A DNA stretch of 64,000 nucleotides, taken from the IMG/VR virus record IMGVR_UViG_3300025141_000018; one strand, given 5' to 3'. The DNA comes from a virus. Lineage: Duplodnaviria > Caudoviricetes. The number at the start of each line of letters is the position of its first letter. The first letter of the stretch is position 1. Positions 1,478 to 60,970 of this stretch are shown piece after piece. The notes below the pieces were generated by a model that was given only the letters and a program-made list of their open reading frames with translations, did not search any database and had not been told where the DNA came from. Both the position numbers and the translations under genes were made by a program.

Positions 1478-1697
1478 TTTATCTCCTTCGAGTCTAAAAA
1501 ATAGACAATGTTATTTAAATTTTCCATTATATTCCTTCCGAATATGCTTAATTTTTCACATTGTATATTTACCGTGGTATTATAGAAACATACGTGCTTA
1601 GGCATATTTTGGAAAAAAGTGCTTAAAATTTATAAGAGACGTCTATTTTTGCTACACGACTAAATAGAATAGTTTAGGTTAGGAGTAATAGAACAAA

Positions 1698-2582
1698 ATG
1701 ACACAATTAATTAACCCTGTTGAATTTACGACTGTGGTTAAGCGTCTTCGTTCCTTTTTCGATAACTTAAATTTTCAAGAAGTACACACCCAAAATAGAT
1801 TAAGCATACTTGCCGCTTGTGAGGACCCAACTACTGTTGCAACCTACGAGTATGGAGGCAAGATATGGCCACTTCCACAAACTGGACAAATGTGGCTTGA
1901 ATACGAACTACTAACAAAACCTGATTTGGCAGGTTGTTATTGTGTTAGTACAAGTTACAGGCAAGAGCAAAATCCACAGGAAGGCCGGCACGAAGTTATT
2001 TTTCCAATGTTTGAATTTGAATCACCAGGTGGTTTTGATGATTTATTAAAAATGGAAAGTGATTTATTAACACACCTCGGATTTAATTGTGATCACGGAA
2101 GAGCAGTTTACAATGATGGACTCATTGACTTCCCAGGTGGGTATTACCAAAGTATGGTAGCACATTATGCGGCGGCCAATAACGAGCTGACCAGTTACCA
2201 CGAAAGCAACATGTATGATGAATACGGAGATGTATTCTTCTTAACATTATTTCCTGAATCAACCAGTCCTTTCTGGAATATGAAAATTTCAGATCAAAGA
2301 GGACCAAAAGATATGAAACTTGCAAATAAATGTGACGTCATCATAGGAGGCATGGAAACTATTGGTAGTGCTGAGAGATCTTGTAATGTACAAGAAATGA
2401 AAGAGCAATTCTATACAATATCCGATGGCGGATATGCTGGTTTGCTATTTGATTTATTTGGTAAAGAGCGGGTAGAGTACGAACTTTTTGAATTTTTAAG
2501 TTATGATTTTAAACCACGTTATGGTGGTGGTATAGGAATAACACGCTTAATTGCAGGAATGAAAAAAGCGGGCCTGTTATAA
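1698..2582 (+). CDS. class IIb aaRS catalytic-domain-only protein (AsnRS/AspRS-like; archaeal-type asparagine synthetase-like)
   Basis: motif 1 RLRSFFDNLNFQEVHT, motif 2 SYRQEQNPQEGRHEVIFPMFEFE, motif 3 GGGIGITRL; no N-terminal OB anticodon-binding domain; TAAATA at 1661-1666 and SD AGGAG upstream. Confidence 0.85.
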   Translation: MTQLINPVEFTTVVKRLRSFFDNLNFQEVHTQNRLSILAACEDPTTVATYEYGGKIWPLPQTGQMWLEYELLTKPDLAGCYCVSTSYRQEQNPQEGRHEVIFPMFEFESPGGFDDLLKMESDLLTHLGFNCDHGRAVYNDGLIDFPGGYYQSMVAHYAAANNELTSYHESNMYDEYGDVFFLTLFPESTSPFWNMKISDQRGPKDMKLANKCDVIIGGMETIGSAERSCNVQEMKEQFYTISDGGYAGLLFDLFGKERVEYELFEFLSYDFKPRYGGGIGITRLIAGMKKAGLL

Positions 2583-2737
2583 TGACAGAGAATGCTGAAA
2601 ATGCATTTATAGACCTTTTCTTCTTTGAGAAATACGGATTTGCTAGTTGCTTTGAGTGCGACAAAACATTTACAGACCTTGTTGAACTAAGCAAGCATCA
2701 AGAGGAACATCTTAAAGAAGAACAGACTCTGGGGTGA
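2582..2737 (+). CDS. 51-aa C2H2 zinc-finger mini-protein (below ORF-track cutoff)
   Basis: MTENAENAFIDLFFFEKYGFASCFECDKTFTDLVELSKHQEEHLKEEQTLG; exact C-x2-C-x3-F-x5-L-x2-H-x3-H; start overlaps upstream stop (TAATG). Confidence 0.7.
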   Translation: MTENAENAFIDLFFFEKYGFASCFECDKTFTDLVELSKHQEEHLKEEQTLG

Positions 2738-2819
2738 CGAAACGGTAGACGTGGTACGTTGTTTGCGTATTGTCCCTTTGCAGAGGGGCGTGTTGGTTCG
2801 AATCCAACCCCCAGAGCCA
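2728..2819 (+). tRNA. atypical tRNA, anticodon GUU (Asn), long variable arm, encoded CCA
   Basis: acceptor TCTGGGG/CCCCAGA, G73, CCA; D stem ACG/CGT; anticodon stem GTACG/CGTAT with loop TTGTTTG; variable stem GTCCCTT/GAGGGGC; T arm GTTGG-TTCGAAT-CCAAC. Confidence 0.88.
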
Positions 2820-2847
2820 TTCATAGTTTAGATTAGGTTAATATTTA

Positions 2848-3108
2848 TTAACGACTATTTAAAACATACACTTTCTTTTTCAATTTTCCAACTGTAAAAA
2901 AATTAAAACCCAATGGTACAGGCTTGTCCCATCCGTTCTTACGTGCTTGTGAAACACTAGAAAATATACCTACTTTAAACATTAAATGAGCCATTAGTGT
3001 GCCATCACCGAATCGAATTGGATTATCTAATCCAAATAACTCTATGTCTTCTTCAGTTTCTTTTTCGTGGGCAAAGTCGAATTCGGGACTACCGGTATGT
3101 CTATCCAT
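2848..3108 (-). CDS. small protein with possible S4-like RNA-binding motif
   Basis: LMAHLMFKVGIFSSVSQARK resembles the S4 motif of the TyrRS C-terminal domain; SD AGGAG 10 nt upstream. Confidence 0.45.
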   Translation of the reverse strand: MDRHTGSPEFDFAHEKETEEDIELFGLDNPIRFGDGTLMAHLMFKVGIFSSVSQARKNGWDKPVPLGFNFFTVGKLKKKVYVLNSR

Positions 3109-3290: not shown

Positions 3291-4324
3291 GTTTCATAAT
3301 GCACGGCTTCAAGTATATCTGCACAACCTACAGTTTTATCACACGAAGTATAACATTCTCTTAATGGCTTATTTTCTAACATATCAAAAAAATCCTTTTG
3401 GTATTTGTCAGTATCTAATATTGTTTTAATATCATGTTTACTAGCATTATTCCAATCGTTACCTAACCAATTATAGATTTCTTTACCGGCACCACCTTCA
3501 TGTGATTCTGCTCGACTAGCATTCCACATACAACATGGTAATATATCTCCGTTTACTGTAAGATAAATTGCTGATCCTGCTAAACTTAAACATTTTATAT
3601 TATGATCGGGCGTTGGCTTTGGTAATGTAACAAAGTTATCTGATAACGGAGTTGCCAATGTAATAGGCCTTTTAAGGAAATTAATTGCTCTATCAGATTC
3701 GTTATAATCTAATACTGATCTAAATCTTTTACAACCCAGTTTTTTACTATACTCTTTAACTAATGGTACATTGTGTTTATTGTGTTTAAATATAACCATT
3801 TTCCATTCAGCAACTCCTCCATTGCTTATAAACGTATGCATATTACGTTCTATTAATTCCCAATTTTCACGAGCCGTTGATTGTCCTATTCTATATTTGC
3901 TATTAGCCTCACCTAAATCATCTATAGAAAATGTTATATATCTATTTTCTTTATTACAAAATTTTGCTAACTCCTTCCATACAGTTTCATTTCCTAATGT
4001 TCCGTTTGTATGAAAAAAGAATCTTATACGTTTGTTTCTTGAGGATACCATTGCTTCACAAATATCAAGAATACCTTTATGTCCAAGTGGATCGCCATAT
4101 GTACCTATAAATTCAATTTGTTTCCATAATAATGAGTTGGGACCTTCAAATAAGTTATGCTTGAATATATTAGGATCTAAATATTGATTATATATTACAT
4201 TATTGTTTTTATGTAACGTATTATTTTCATATCTGTATCGTTTACAGCCAGGGCAAAACAGATTACAAAATGTAGTTAATTCAACTTCTAATGTTATTTT
4301 ACCAAATTTATCTGTATTAAACAT
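3284..4324 (-). CDS. radical SAM protein with C-terminal SPASM/twitch-like domain
   Basis: CNLFCPGC (CxxxCxxC), GTYGDP, FSIDD, GDILPCCM, terminal CxxxC; start moved to MFNTDK. Confidence 0.88.
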   Translation of the reverse strand: MFNTDKFGKITLEVELTTFCNLFCPGCKRYRYENNTLHKNNNVIYNQYLDPNIFKHNLFEGPNSLLWKQIEFIGTYGDPLGHKGILDICEAMVSSRNKRIRFFFHTNGTLGNETVWKELAKFCNKENRYITFSIDDLGEANSKYRIGQSTARENWELIERNMHTFISNGGVAEWKMVIFKHNKHNVPLVKEYSKKLGCKRFRSVLDYNESDRAINFLKRPITLATPLSDNFVTLPKPTPDHNIKCLSLAGSAIYLTVNGDILPCCMWNASRAESHEGGAGKEIYNWLGNDWNNASKHDIKTILDTDKYQKDFFDMLENKPLRECYTSCDKTVGCADILEAVHYETC

Positions 4325-5342
4325 TTTTACCACACTTATGAAAACATGTCCGTATATATTCTTCTTTACGTAAAACTGCTGGTATGTGTTCTGCAAAATA
4401 CGGATGTTCAAATACTTTTGCTACGCCATGTTTTTTTATATTATTCCAGTCATTTGAATAATTATTAAAAAACTCTTTCATGTCGTCTTCTTTGTTTAAT
4501 CTATAATGATAACAACATGGCCACATTTCAAAATTATATGTAATAGCAATAGTTTTTCTTTCGTTAACATGCATACAATCAAATCCTTTTGGATTCTCTA
4601 ATCTTTCTTTTATTTGTTTTTCAATATGTTTAGTTTGCTTAGTAGTTTGTTTAGGTGCTATTACTTGTTTTAATTTGTTATGTGTTTCATTATATGTGTC
4701 TTGCGAAATATGTTGCTTTACTTCTTCTGTTACTTTTAACACATCATTTATTTTTCTAGTATTATGCATATAAAAATGAAAACCATATTCTTGTGCTTTC
4801 TTTTTTGTATACATAACATCGTCTATATTATGTCCAAATTGAATAAACTGCCAGCCACCTTTTCCTTCGTACTGTTTAAAAATATTTAAATTGCGTTCAA
4901 TTATTTCGTAGTCACTACCTATTCTATATTTTTCATTAACGGCTTGATGGCTACCATCTATTGCTACTACAAAACGTATTTTAGTTCCGCCTAGTTTATT
5001 TGTTAGCATAGCAATATTCCGCCAAGTCTCTTCCGTGCCTAATGTAGCATTAGTTGAAATATAAACAGTTTTTGCATTGTGGCTTAACAGAGCATCCACA
5101 ATACTAATGAAATCAGGATTGCCCATAGGGTCAGAGACACCACCAGACAAGGACCAATATACTTCATTTACTATTCCCTCATTTGCTAACCAGTTAATAT
5201 CATCAACCGTCCAATGCTTGATGGGTATTTTTTCTTTGCTTTTAACTACTCTATGATATCGTTCGCACAATACACAAGTTAAATTACAAAAACTAGTTAT
5301 TTCACAATCTACTTCGTGAACTTTCCGCATCGTTGTATACAA
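4317..5342 (-). CDS. radical SAM protein with C-terminal SPASM/twitch-like domain
   Basis: CNLTCVLC, GGVSDP, VAIDG, EMWPCCY, CFHKC. Confidence 0.88.
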   Translation of the reverse strand: MYTTMRKVHEVDCEITSFCNLTCVLCERYHRVVKSKEKIPIKHWTVDDINWLANEGIVNEVYWSLSGGVSDPMGNPDFISIVDALLSHNAKTVYISTNATLGTEETWRNIAMLTNKLGGTKIRFVVAIDGSHQAVNEKYRIGSDYEIIERNLNIFKQYEGKGGWQFIQFGHNIDDVMYTKKKAQEYGFHFYMHNTRKINDVLKVTEEVKQHISQDTYNETHNKLKQVIAPKQTTKQTKHIEKQIKERLENPKGFDCMHVNERKTIAITYNFEMWPCCYHYRLNKEDDMKEFFNNYSNDWNNIKKHGVAKVFEHPYFAEHIPAVLRKEEYIRTCFHKCGKNV

Positions 5343-6277
5343 GTTTCAATTGGGTTTGTTTCGATTCTTTTATCTAATTTTTCCCAAAATTTTTCATTTG
5401 CAATCGAATGAAAACTTTTATATTTTATATTTTTTATTTGCATTACTTCTTTTACTTCTTGTCTAGTTTGTAACCTATTATCATGGGGGCTTGCACCTAA
5501 ATGACAACAAGGAAACACATCACCAGATGCTCCTACATATATTGTTTTCCAATCTTTGCATTGCGGAGCATCAACAAATCCTTTATAATCATTCTTTTTA
5601 ACAATGTTATTCATATCCATATTTTCGGATACTTTTATATTAGGAATATCAAATCCTTCATTAAGATTATTAGACACAAAAAAATCTTTAAAACCTAATT
5701 TTGTTGCAAGAGTTCCTGCTTCTTCAACTTGATGTTTATTGTGTTCAAACATAATATACTTCCAATGAGCATTTCCGCCATTGCTTATAAATGTATGTAC
5801 ATTTTCCATTATTTTTTCCCATCGTACATTGCGTCTATATAAATGATTTGTATCTTCTAATCCATCTATTGAAAAGTTTACAATTAGTTTTCCTGCAAAT
5901 ATATTACCACCTATTATTGTTTTAGTTTTAATATTTGCAAGTGCTATCCATGCATCTTCTTTACCTAGTCCTCCATTTGTATCTATAGTTATGAACGAAA
6001 ATCGTTTAAATTCAATTATCTTGTGAATTATTTTTATAATATCTTTATTGAATAACGGATCTCCCATATTTCCACATAAATTAATTTGAACTTTATCTAT
6101 TATATTTGTACTAGAAAATATGTTTTCAATATCTTCTACAGTTAAATTATTATTATATGTTACTAAAGGATTAAGATAAGAAACGTTTTCATCAAGTGTA
6201 TGCCTCATGCATAACGGGCATCTTGCATTACAACCTGAGCTTAACTCTAAATGTAACTTCCTTATTTCAGAATACAT
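5309..6277 (-). CDS. radical SAM protein with C-terminal SPASM/twitch-like domain
   Basis: CNARCPLC, CGNMGDP, FSIDG, GDVFPCCH, CIQRC. Confidence 0.9.
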   Translation of the reverse strand: MYSEIRKLHLELSSGCNARCPLCMRHTLDENVSYLNPLVTYNNNLTVEDIENIFSSTNIIDKVQINLCGNMGDPLFNKDIIKIIHKIIEFKRFSFITIDTNGGLGKEDAWIALANIKTKTIIGGNIFAGKLIVNFSIDGLEDTNHLYRRNVRWEKIMENVHTFISNGGNAHWKYIMFEHNKHQVEEAGTLATKLGFKDFFVSNNLNEGFDIPNIKVSENMDMNNIVKKNDYKGFVDAPQCKDWKTIYVGASGDVFPCCHLGASPHDNRLQTRQEVKEVMQIKNIKYKSFHSIANEKFWEKLDKRIETNPIETCIQRCGKFTK

Positions 6278-37247: not shown

Positions 37248-37475
37248 TTACTTCTTGCTATAAATACCCCATAAAATCCAAAGGGCAATTAAGCCAACAA
37301 GTCCTTCACCACCTAATGCTTTCACGAATGCGATTACATTTCCCAGGATGTCGAAAGGAAGGAATACTACGTTCGCTCCAAAAATGATTTGAAGAACTAT
37401 ACCCATCATCAGAATCGATAATCCAACTTCTGTTAAACCTCGTATCCAAGCAGATACACTTTTGATAATATCCAT
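37248..37475 (-). CDS. 75-aa two-TM membrane protein
   Basis: SD AGGAG; hydrophobic; start at MDIIK. Confidence 0.7.
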   Translation of the reverse strand: MDIIKSVSAWIRGLTEVGLSILMMGIVLQIIFGANVVFLPFDILGNVIAFVKALGGEGLVGLIALWILWGIYSKK

Positions 37476-37497
37476 CTTATTTTTTCTCCTAAAATGA

Positions 37498-37817
37498 AAG
37501 GTTGATTCTGTTTCCAGGTTCAACCTTTAAAACCCACTAAATTATGCGGCTAACGCCATTGCATAATTAGGACTATACTCTGCATTGTTTGCAGTTATTG
37601 TTAATACAGTCTCTCCGATGCATCATTACGCTGTCGAAATCTATTTCGCCCCCATCAGCGAAATACAACATCTAAAATCCATATTAACCCTCCGGAGCCC
37701 AATAAAATTACAAAGGCCCAAAATAGGTTTTGATTGCTCATTGTTGTACCTCTCTGGTGGAGGCGGGCGGTATCGCACCGCCGTCCAAACGTCGTCAACA
37801 AAGTGTCATCGACCGTG
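37498..37817 (-). ncRNA. ssrA: circularly permuted (two-piece) tmRNA gene
   Basis: acceptor piece ends GGCGG-TGCGATA-CCGCC-CGCCTCC-A-CCA (37782-37755); coding piece starts GGGGGCG at 37653 with G3.U70; tag ANNAEYSPNYAMALAA* at 37592-37542; TAAATA at 37827-37822; 3' hairpin at 37497-37528; outer ends approximate. Confidence 0.92.
37655..37741 (-). CDS. 28-aa hydrophobic peptide in the tmRNA intervening segment
   Basis: SD GAGAGG (37754-37749), 7-nt spacer, ATG; MSNQNLFWAFVILLGSGGLIWILDVVFR*. Confidence 0.6.
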   Translation of the reverse strand: MSNQNLFWAFVILLGSGGLIWILDVVFR

Positions 37818-37835
37818 TGTATATTTACCTGAATT

Positions 37836-38264
37836 TCAGGTAGATTCCCCGGAATTACACCGAGGTGCGTGGATCTCAACTAGGTAAGATTCACGTTTTT
37901 CTAGCACTTTTTTACTAGTAAAATTAGCACACGGGGTAAATATAACCTCCACGTCATCTAATGTATCCTTGGTAAAAAATATGTGCCTAAACTCATCCCA
38001 ACTTTTAGTTTGTCTTGTTCCGTGTTTAGTAATGCCTAACAACTTTCTTGCATGTTGTCGTAATCTTTGTGGTGTTCCAGCATTATAACTGGTATTATCA
38101 CTTGCATTAATTCCGATATAAAAAATGCCAAAACTTGGCGAACTTAGCATATAAATGCCTTGAGAACGAATCTCTTTTGGTGAATCTTTCCGTGTTCTGA
38201 CACTAAAACTGTTATCTTTTGGTATAAAATCTAGAATTTTTTTTAAAGGAAATTTATACTGCAT
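37836..38264 (-). CDS. GIY-YIG homing endonuclease-like protein
   Basis: GIYMLSSPSFGIFYIG, RLRQH, E...N; apparently leaderless from a TTGACT-N18-TATAAT promoter at 38301-38272. Confidence 0.8.
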   Translation of the reverse strand: MQYKFPLKKILDFIPKDNSFSVRTRKDSPKEIRSQGIYMLSSPSFGIFYIGINASDNTSYNAGTPQRLRQHARKLLGITKHGTRQTKSWDEFRHIFFTKDTLDDVEVIFTPCANFTSKKVLEKRESYLVEIHAPRCNSGEST

Positions 38265-60476: not shown

Positions 60477-60571
60477 AATAAATATATATTACACTATTTA
60501 GGTTGTTTTCGCAACCTTTATTATGGGGCACCATCCCCGTAGTGGATAGAACCCACTTTAGGAGAAAACAA

Positions 60572-60970
60572 ATGGGAAGACCAATTAGTAAAAGACATAT
60601 CGGTACACCCGATGCTGGCAACGAATTAAAATGTCGGTATCATACCGGAGCCGCAGAAGTAAACGGCTGGATTGTTGCACAAAAAGGTACCAAGCGATAT
60701 AAATGCTACGATGGTTCCACTTATGCAACATGCTCATTAGTTGATAAAGCACAAGGTACATTAGCCGCTGGCGAAATGACTGTTACTGTTAAAGACGATG
60801 GCGGAACAGTTCGCCAGGTCACAAAAATTACAGGACATAGAGTTATGCTTGATTCAGGCACATCTCAGCCTTGGACATTTACAACAGATGCCGCTGATGA
60901 CAAAGTGGAAATTGAAGAAGCAGGTACGGACGATTCCTTTACCGGCGCAGACGATTTCGAAGCAGACTGA
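60572..60970 (+). CDS. hypothetical protein
   Basis: SD AGGAG before MGRPISK; TAAATA at 60479-60484. Confidence 0.75.
   Translation: MGRPISKRHIGTPDAGNELKCRYHTGAAEVNGWIVAQKGTKRYKCYDGSTYATCSLVDKAQGTLAAGEMTVTVKDDGGTVRQVTKITGHRVMLDSGTSQPWTFTTDAADDKVEIEEAGTDDSFTGADDFEAD

Follow-up and report, generated by a model that had tools for sequence, protein, structure and literature searches.

The locus and its cassette

A 64,000-nucleotide stretch of DNA from a marine jumbo phage (IMG/VR virus record IMGVR_UViG_3300025141_000018; Duplodnaviria, Caudoviricetes), referred to here as the window, carries a gene for an enzyme resembling asparaginyl-tRNA synthetase (AsnRS), followed by a gene for an atypical tRNA with the anticodon GUU (Table 1). 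The window has a GC content of about 34%, and 27 of its 28 open reading frames (ORFs) of at least 250 amino acids lie on the minus strand, the enzyme gene being the sole one on the plus strand. The original prediction, drawn from the bare sequence, had remarked on this plus-strand rarity and had described a class IIb synthetase core with motifs 1-3 and no OB domain, a coupled 51-amino-acid C2H2 finger ORF, and a tRNA with U1-A72, GUU and G73 on a body with a long variable arm. All of these features were recovered. Judged by its sequence, the unit appears to be a mobile two-gene cassette, joined in the window's lineage by a small accessory ORF. The reading favoured here over plain asparagine synthesis, on the strength of sequence and modelled structure, is the tentative one that the enzyme aminoacylates the cassette's private tRNA.

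Table 1. Features of the cassette and of the surrounding window
Feature	Positions	Strand	Basis
AsnRS-like class IIb aminoacyl-tRNA-synthetase catalytic core, 294 aa, without anticodon-binding domain	1698-2582	+	Pfam, PHROG, AF2
C2H2 zinc-finger mini-protein, 51 aa	2582-2737	+	C23-x2-C26-x3-F30-x5-L36-x2-H39-x3-H43; Pfam zf-C2H2 24.0 bits
tRNA(GUU), 92 nt, ARAGORN Asn(GUU)	2728-2819	+	ARAGORN; Rfam; family covariance model, 90 bits
5′ leader with CTAAATAG motif (1660-1667) and AGGAG ribosome-binding site	1660-1697	+	sequence
S4-like (alpha-L) fold candidate, 86 aa, convergent neighbour	2848-3108	-	AF2 pLDDT 92
GlnII-type (eukaryote-like type II) glutamine synthetase, 319 aa	518-1477	-	NCBIfam NF041605, E 5.7e-97, 325 bits, under the 500-bit cut-off
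Three tandem, partly overlapping radical SAM proteins, 375, 341 and 322 aa	3284-6277	-	first scanned: Radical_SAM and SPASM domains
SufB-like Fe-S cluster assembly protein, 477 aa	21468-22901	-	62% identity with sufB of Microcystis phage MaAM05
Permuted (two-piece) tmRNA, phage-borne	37451-37849	-	Rfam RF04321, 78.4 bits; ARAGORN tag peptide ANNAEYSPNYAMALAA
Match to the Rfam 'freshwater-2' RNA motif, in a marine phage	60500-60574	+	58.2 bits, gathering score 49.9

The two genes are tightly linked. A covariance model for the tRNA family, built from ARAGORN calls, places a family member directly 3′ of the enzyme gene in 70 of the 86 sources examined; where ARAGORN itself called the tRNA, it lies -17 to +230 nt from the enzyme stop. 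A tRNA-first, enzyme-blind scan of all IMG/VR with the pattern TGRYGAAANNGGYARACRYNNNNNNYNGTT returned 79 hits, of which 71 have the enzyme directly upstream, six fall at contig ends and two are unlinked. The enzyme is thus upstream in 71 of the 73 evaluable hits, and only one of the two unlinked hits (L271) is a convincing family member. The tRNA is almost never found away from the enzyme, a one-sided dependence. Clustering of all flanking ORFs across the cassette loci revealed no other conserved gene and no third protein, so the pair moves as a cassette through differing contexts. The proposal that the enzyme and its atypical tRNA(GUU) form a conserved unit is therefore upheld from both directions.

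The cassette is widespread but uncharacterised. At least 596 enzyme loci occur in IMG/VR, and at least 8000 clusters of the protein at 90% identity in metagenomes. Searches with tblastn found the enzyme at 53% identity in the Prochlorococcus phages P-SSM2, P-SSM5 and P-SSM7, with a tRNA-Asn gene of 85-88 nt directly 3′. These cyanophage copies carry the annotation 'tRNA ligase', T4-GC 194; a table row in Sullivan et al. 2010 (PMC3037559) is the sole mention found in the literature, where no functional study of the cassette was found. In P-SSM7 (L001, 2720-3893) the enzyme gene stands within a tRNA cluster, in the order tRNA-Ile, tRNA-Arg, tRNA-Leu(UAA), enzyme, odd tRNA(GUU). The tRNA-Asn of P-SSM2 is annotated about 2 kb away from its place in the sequence.

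The AsnRS-like enzyme

The enzyme matches Pfam PF00152, the class II D/K/N core, over residues 11-288 (E 2.5e-16) and no other Pfam domain, and it is a member of phrog_29758 (E 5e-98), a PHROG listed as of unknown function. Its AF2 model (pLDDT 89.4, built on 54 homologues) is closest to AsnRS catalytic domains in both Foldseek and VIA-align searches, with human AsnRS at Z 27.5, a root-mean-square deviation of 2.1 Å over 250 residues and 23% identity. Other families score lower in VIA: archaeal AspRS 26.7, GenX/EpmA 23.6 and the archaeal asparagine synthetase A, AS-AR, 23.2. Across human (8H53), Pyrococcus horikoshii (1X54) and Thermus thermophilus (9SH8) AsnRS the shared fold with its motifs 1-3 superposes at Z 26-27.5 and 2.1-2.7 Å over 250-255 residues (20-23% identity), and the pocket residues and the length of the motif-2 loop are alike. 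In these alignments residue 1 of the phage enzyme falls where the catalytic domain of AsnRS begins (chain residues 233 onward and 122 onward). Unlike AsnRS, it therefore has no N-terminal OB-fold anticodon-binding domain; it also has about 30 residues fewer between motifs 2 and 3, and its partner tRNA has a tRNA-Leu-like body.

Profile searches agree with the structural comparison. The profile of the enzyme family matches AsnRS and AspRS at 1e-10 to 1e-6; LysRS is also among the matches at E ≤0.001, and AS-AR (3P8T), AsnA and EpmA are not. Against NCBIfam the enzyme gives only weak aspS, asnS and lysS matches (asnS NF003037 at 18.2 bits, far under its cut-off of 414) and no match to the EpmA (genX) model, and Pfam AsnA (PF03590) gives none at E ≤0.1. 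The signature residues Q61-x2-Q64-MW-L67-E68, E106-x-E108 and G223-SAE-R227 are of AsnRS type. In HMMER residue alignments QTGQMWLE of the enzyme corresponds to QSSQLYLE in AsnRS and QSPQLYKQ in AspRS, FEFE to VEAE in AsnRS and LDVE in AspRS, and GSAER to GGSMR in AsnRS. Three positions distinguish AsnRS from the aligned AspRS sequences, and at each of them the enzyme has the AsnRS residue: L67-E68 rather than K-Q, and E106 rather than D. By these signatures the pocket is read as AsnRS-type, not AspRS-type or LysRS-type, in keeping with the AsnRS-like identity first assigned to the protein. R88 of motif 2 and R283 of motif 3 are invariant across the family. The motif-2 loop (YRQE.NP.EGRH) is nearly invariant and about as long as that of AsnRS; in AspRS-tRNA complexes this loop contacts G73 and the pair 1-72.

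Two kinds of domain-less class IIb paralogues offer other roles for such a protein. EpmA (GenX, PoxA; PDB 3A5Y, 3A5Z), a LysRS paralogue that lysylates EF-P, is likewise a class IIb core without an anticodon-binding domain and superposes at Z 23.2-23.6, so that the phage enzyme is structurally as near to GenX/EpmA as to AS-AR (23.6 against 23.2). By analogy, it might aminoacylate a protein or a small molecule, with the tRNA as unrelated cargo or as an element that processes or stabilises the mRNA 3′ end, and the wide occurrence of the enzyme without the tRNA would suit such a role. This explanation is nevertheless judged very improbable: the pocket resembles that of AsnRS and not LysRS, the genX model is unmatched, and a mere processing signal would not need an invariant GUU, U1-A72 and G73. 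There is also no conserved protein partner nearby; the genomic partner is a tRNA, rather than EF-P or EpmB.

The second precedent is a tRNA-independent enzyme of asparagine synthesis. AS-AR ('AsnRS2'; PDB 3P8T, 3REU, 1NNH) is also a stand-alone class IIb core, of about 294 amino acids (Z 22.9-23.2), and both it and AsnA are domain-less class IIb paralogues that make asparagine (PMC2330236). On this model the cassette may serve asparagine supply, a possible if doubtful explanation in which the enzyme is a tRNA-independent, ammonia-dependent asparagine synthetase. The tRNA would be an odd but ordinary decoder of AAC and AAU, charged by the host AsnRS or by a non-discriminating AspRS together with GatCAB, and the two genes would travel together since both raise the supply of Asn-tRNA for an AT-rich phage. 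Features of the protein count against this role: it has no Pfam AsnA match, AS-AR is missing from the profile matches at E ≤0.001 and lies about 4 Z units below AsnRS, and the pocket residues are AsnRS-type, not AspRS-type. AS-AR, moreover, has no dedicated tRNA.

A chimeric tRNA

The tRNA of the window scores 41.2 bits against the Rfam tRNA model, whose gathering score is 29; the score is obtained with permissive filters, and the Rfam run over the whole window missed it. Its acceptor end has U1-A72, G73 and an encoded CCA; the D stem is of 3 bp, the variable arm is long, and the anticodon loop reads UUGUUUG, with U37. Statistics over 52 distinct family sequences, the window's included, show U1-A72, G73, U8, G9, G12-C23, A14, A15, G18, G19 and G34-U35-U36 in 52 of 52, and CCA is encoded in 50. 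The cloverleaf is paired in 99.7% of cells, with compensatory changes at 17 of 20 pairs. Lengths run from 77 to 111 nt and the variable arm from about 5 to about 35 nt; the arm is long in 43 sequences and an ordinary short loop in nine. An eighth acceptor pair, C-1:G73, was ruled out by the composition of position -1 (C 22, T 16, A 13, G 1). 'Terminators' called near the cassette proved to be the tRNA's own variable arm.

The body of this tRNA resembles bacterial tRNA-Leu. Its D arm and core (U8 G9, a 3-bp D stem, A13-A22, A14 A15 and GGUAGAC) are tRNA-Leu-like, as is its long variable arm. Under the family covariance model phage tRNA-Leu reaches 60-64 bits and that of Patescibacteria 57-71 bits, against 46-53 bits for canonical tRNA-Asn. 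It departs from tRNA-Leu in having G73 in place of the A73 that LeuRS needs. With canonical tRNA-Asn it shares U1-A72, G73 and GUU, and it differs at position 37, which is A in tRNA-Asn and mostly a pyrimidine here. The tRNA is thus chimeric: its body is of Leu type and its ends are of Asn type.

The anticodon loop is unusual. U33 and a purine at 37 are near-universal among elongator tRNAs, and canonical phage tRNA-Asn genes keep U33 and A37. In the family, position 33 is U in 47 sequences, C in four and G in one (non-U in 10%), and position 37 is U in 34, G in eight, A in seven and C in three, hence a pyrimidine in 37 of 52 (71%). Positions 32, 33, 37 and 38 all vary while G34-U35-U36 stays fixed. 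These relaxed positions fit the non-standard tRNA system that had been proposed. A further part of that proposal, in which the long variable arm takes the place of anticodon recognition, does not extend to the family as a whole, given the nine members with a short loop.

Such a loop raises the prospect that decoding is not the tRNA's main job. The tRNA could be a decoy or replacement, shielding Asn decoding from a host anticodon nuclease aimed at GUN/QUN tRNAs, or the enzyme could modify it away from the 3′ end in the manner of GluQRS (YadB), itself a synthetase without an anticodon-binding domain that acts on one GUN-family tRNA. A fixed G34-U35-U36 amid varying neighbours is consistent with this idea, the Leu-like body would set the tRNA apart from the host tRNA-Asn, and GluQRS gives a precedent for a domain-less paralogue acting on an anticodon loop. 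GluQRS is a domain-less GluRS paralogue of class I; it glutamylates queuosine-34 of tRNA-Asp, not the 3′ end, and it has no private tRNA gene. The phage enzyme is of class II and not GluRS-like, U33, which tRNA-guanine transglycosylase needs for queuosine, is not invariant, and the invariant U1-A72 and G73 with the encoded CCA point to the acceptor end, all of which makes this role improbable.

The same marks can be set against the known routes to Asn-tRNA. The anticodon and G73 are determinants for AsnRS and AspRS. U1-A72 is the determinant for GatCAB (PMC2330236). The invariant GUU, G73 and U1-A72 of the family match what host AsnRS, non-discriminating AspRS and GatCAB read, as expected if the tRNA merely adds to asparagine supply. 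A pyrimidine at 37 in 71% and a non-U33 in 10% of sequences are odd for a decoder of this kind, and the near-constant presence of the enzyme upstream of the tRNA (71 of 73) is unexpected if host enzymes serve it.

A TATTTAT or CTATTTA motif recurs about 10-25 nt 3′ of the tRNA on the plus strand (for example in L012, L030, L033, L034 and L039; at about 2835-2862 in the window). TATTTAT is the reverse complement of the T4-late-promoter-like ATAAATA, which would point antisense into the cassette.

Relatives of the enzyme without the tRNA

One clade of viral enzymes has no tRNA within 3 kb. In one of its loci (L053) the enzyme gene lies between two major-capsid paralogues of nucleocytoplasmic large DNA viruses (885-2864 and 3883-5622), and in another (L042) it adjoins a eukaryotic-type protein kinase gene; by its gene content the clade appears to belong to giant viruses of eukaryotes. 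Whole-record searches of the huge phages LR756501 and LR756508 gave canonical tRNA-Asn genes only; their enzymes share 47% and 40% identity with that of the window. A scan of one genome per prokaryotic species gave 414 enzyme matches at 52-61% identity, mostly in Patescibacteria and also in Saprospiraceae/Aureispira, other Bacteroidota, small 'Gammaproteobacteria' and further groups; three further hits resemble phage contigs binned into metagenome-assembled genomes. In cells the gene has housekeeping neighbours (Dus, dnaX and FtsQ in Patescibacteria, pyrD and pyrF in Bacteroidota) and no adjacent GUU tRNA, and the genomes carry canonical tRNA-Asn. Ten Patescibacteria loci (L099, L108, L119, L131, L136, L137, L142, L149, L150 and L159) have a co-oriented tRNA-Gln(UUG) gene about 0.1-2.4 kb 3′ of the cellular enzyme gene, within the 2.5-kb flank, a proximity that probably reflects conserved local gene order.

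This distribution fits an enzyme acting on small molecules: it occurs in varied cells and viruses without the special tRNA and shows no conserved residue that sets its tRNA-linked group apart from the cellular one, which favours asparagine supply. Neighbouring genes lean the same way. The gene for GlnII-type glutamine synthetase, divergent from the cassette in the window, adjoins it also in L007 and L012 (85-87% identity) and is absent from the available flanks of the other cassette loci, and the Bacteroidota gene stands beside genes of pyrimidine synthesis, a pathway starting from aspartate.

The routes to Asn-tRNA in the cellular genomes point elsewhere. Among 50 cellular genomes with the enzyme, AsnRS exceeds the curated cut-off in 12 and GatB is found in 45; asnS hits below that cut-off do better against the archaeal-type AspRS model (for example 411 against 273 bits). 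Of the 38 small genomes in which the enzyme occurs, 33 lack AsnRS but have GatB and archaeal-type AspRS, so that transamidation would be their sole known route to Asn-tRNA and free asparagine would be without a known outlet. Genomes with AsnA-type asparagine synthetases, in contrast, use AsnRS and not GatCAB (PMC2330236), and most small genomes carrying the phage-enzyme family run contrary to this published rule, having no AsnRS to use free asparagine. Homologues of AsnB type are present in 19 of 52 enzyme-bearing genomes, in no clear pattern. Within Patescibacteria the frequency of AsnRS is about 13% either way (5 of 38 genomes with the enzyme, 19 of 151 in a phylum sample), and the enzyme itself is rare in that sample (2 of 151).

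A second family of domain-less AsnRS cores, of 330-345 amino acids, was encountered in Patescibacteria: L191:194-1183(-) in genome G046, with similar ORFs in L192 and L193. It matches P. horikoshii 1X54 at E 2e-48 and AS-AR (3P8T) at 6e-5, and occurs in genomes without a full AsnRS. As a bridge to an alignment with AS-AR this paralogue of about 330 amino acids was of no use, since it is AsnRS-proximal and no AS-AR alignment was gained.

Possible charging of a private tRNA

Under the favoured reading, the AsnRS-derived core would bind ATP and an Asn-type amino acid in the AsnRS manner and would most likely attach that amino acid to the 3′ terminus of the tRNA(GUU) encoded beside it. It would read the acceptor end alone (U1-A72, G73 and CCA), perhaps with the Leu-type core, and leave the anticodon unread. 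The tRNA would be a remoulded tRNA-Leu body bearing Asn identity marks, in which GUU may be retained because the charged tRNA must still pair with Asn codons, or because it is recognised by a factor of the host. What we infer here are the contact between enzyme and tRNA, the amino acid used and the use made of the product.

Several observations argue for a private pair. The linkage in 70 of 86 sources occurs on contigs that have no other conserved gene in common, and the tRNA-first scan is strongly asymmetric (71 of 73). Structurally, the enzyme is nearer to AsnRS (Z 27.5) than to AS-AR (23.2) or GenX (23.6), and its pocket is AsnRS-type. In the tRNA, U1-A72 and G73 persist in 52 of 52 sequences while the decoding positions 33 and 37 are relaxed, which would be unexpected for a plain decoder. 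The absence of AsnRS from 33 of 38 small cellular genomes with the enzyme points in the same direction.

Other observations weigh against charging of the tRNA. No characterised class IIb paralogue without such a domain is known to have kept tRNA charging: AsnA, AS-AR and EpmA have all lost it. The phage enzyme has no anticodon-binding domain, yet GUU is invariant and nothing known in the enzyme would read it. Bacterial tRNA-Gln typically has U1-A72 and G73 like tRNA-Asn, and these two marks alone would not tell the one from the other. The original prediction had reckoned that the enzyme's usual occurrence without the tRNA would count against it; the picture is divided, with phages usually carrying the tRNA and with the enzyme standing alone in giant viruses, huge phages and some 414 cellular genomes. 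A column-by-column comparison found no residue that is conserved in the tRNA-linked enzymes yet different in the cellular ones, which suggests that the chemistry of the enzyme is the same everywhere and independent of the special tRNA. The notion that the enzyme replaces AsnRS in Patescibacteria was also dropped, as the near-equal AsnRS frequencies in the two sets show no association.

An extended form of the private-pair reading, more tentative still, is that of a natural, self-contained, anticodon-blind pair, consisting of a minimal AsnRS core and a private tRNA with a Leu body and an Asn end, in which part of the tRNA's job lies beyond ordinary decoding. Possible jobs include a dedicated or insulated pool of Asn-tRNA during host shut-off, or service as a non-ribosomal aminoacyl donor. 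A further candidate, tRNA-dependent amidation of Asp-tRNA(Asn) in place of GatCAB, was set aside because A76, once esterified, would scarcely extend as far as the pocket's buried end, and because some enzyme-bearing genomes are without GatB and so presumably without Asp-tRNA(Asn).

Accessory reading frames and neighbouring genes

The start codon of the C2H2 ORF overlaps the TAA of the enzyme gene by one base (TAATG), an arrangement that suggests translational coupling, and the last 10 nt of the ORF are the 5′ acceptor strand of the tRNA. The spacing of the finger is exact, and its Pfam zf-C2H2 score is marginally below the cut-off of 25.2 bits. All nine aligned homologues keep C, C, H, H, F and L; they come from loci with enzymes that share 66% identity with the window's. 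A predicted complex of the enzyme with the mini-protein scored 0.00, which says nothing for or against binding. The ORF is limited to the window's subclade and L027/L028, 14 loci in all, and in most cassettes, those of the cyanophages included, the tRNA follows the enzyme with no ORF in between. A second mini-protein module, IP[VI]YKNGxGIHxLIxELQRQAxEL, with no Pfam match, takes this position in other lineages of the cassette, where it occurs alone, duplicated, or fused N-terminally to a C2H2 finger (L006:1777-2004, L015:3423-3584, L018:3870-4028, L019:3219-3326 and others).

The convergent ORF at 2848-3108 had been described as S4-like, and here the outcome is mixed. It has no Pfam or PDB sequence match, and a Foldseek search of its model against the PDB gave nothing at E ≤0.001. 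A wide VIA search ranked the S4-like C-terminal domain of E. coli TyrRS (residues 348-424) first at a weak Z of 4.0, followed by YbcJ, Hsp15, YlmH, RqcP and a TyrRS C-domain at Z 2.4-2.9, and a language-model look-alike search (Atlas) found SYY_C/S4 clusters at a score of 0.91. An S4-like fold is thus plausible though weakly backed by the model. Apart from the window, only L065 has a homologue in the vicinity of the cassette, at 2.5 kb, so the ORF is a neighbour and not a component of the cassette. The four-element module of the original prediction, judged by synteny, is accordingly not supported: the finger ORF is confined to its 14 loci, and a cassette-proximal S4-like ORF to the window and L065.

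The TAAATA promoter placed upstream of the enzyme gene fared no better. The motif CTAAATAG occurs five times in the window against 3.2 expected, mostly on the non-coding strand, and is not enriched. A sigma-70-like site at 1555-1583 has 10 of 12 matches, and such sites are no commoner than in shuffled sequence. In one metatranscriptome run a single 189-nt contig covers 1880-2068 at about 96% identity; it is probably a relative's and is unusable for expression, ends or processing. Two polyA runs gave no match to the window stretch.

Elsewhere the window codes for ribonucleotide reductase, helicases and the SufB-like protein, and its DnaB-like helicase shares 53% identity with that of the jumbo Pseudomonas phage PA5oct. 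The three radical SAM proteins beyond the S4-like ORF look like peptide-maturase-type enzymes by their sequences. The stretch is present in marine metagenomes of 16 studies.

Significance

The cassette is extremely common and is found in the model cyanophages P-SSM2, P-SSM5 and P-SSM7, in which it has been listed only as a 'tRNA ligase' since 2005-2010 (PMC3037559). Charging of the cassette tRNA by its enzyme, if real, would make this the first known class IIb synthetase that can do without an anticodon-binding domain. Phages would then bring their own charging system for one amino acid, and the two genes would be a natural orthogonal pair of direct interest to genetic-code engineering. Should the enzyme instead make asparagine, it would stand for a new family of asparagine synthetases and its gene for an abundant viral gene of nitrogen metabolism, with the attachment of the tRNA still puzzling. 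If the anticodon-blind pair is real, the enzyme in Patescibacteria that lack AsnRS would be an unrecognised direct route to Asn-tRNA; either way, its presence there bears on how these bacteria form Asn-tRNA.

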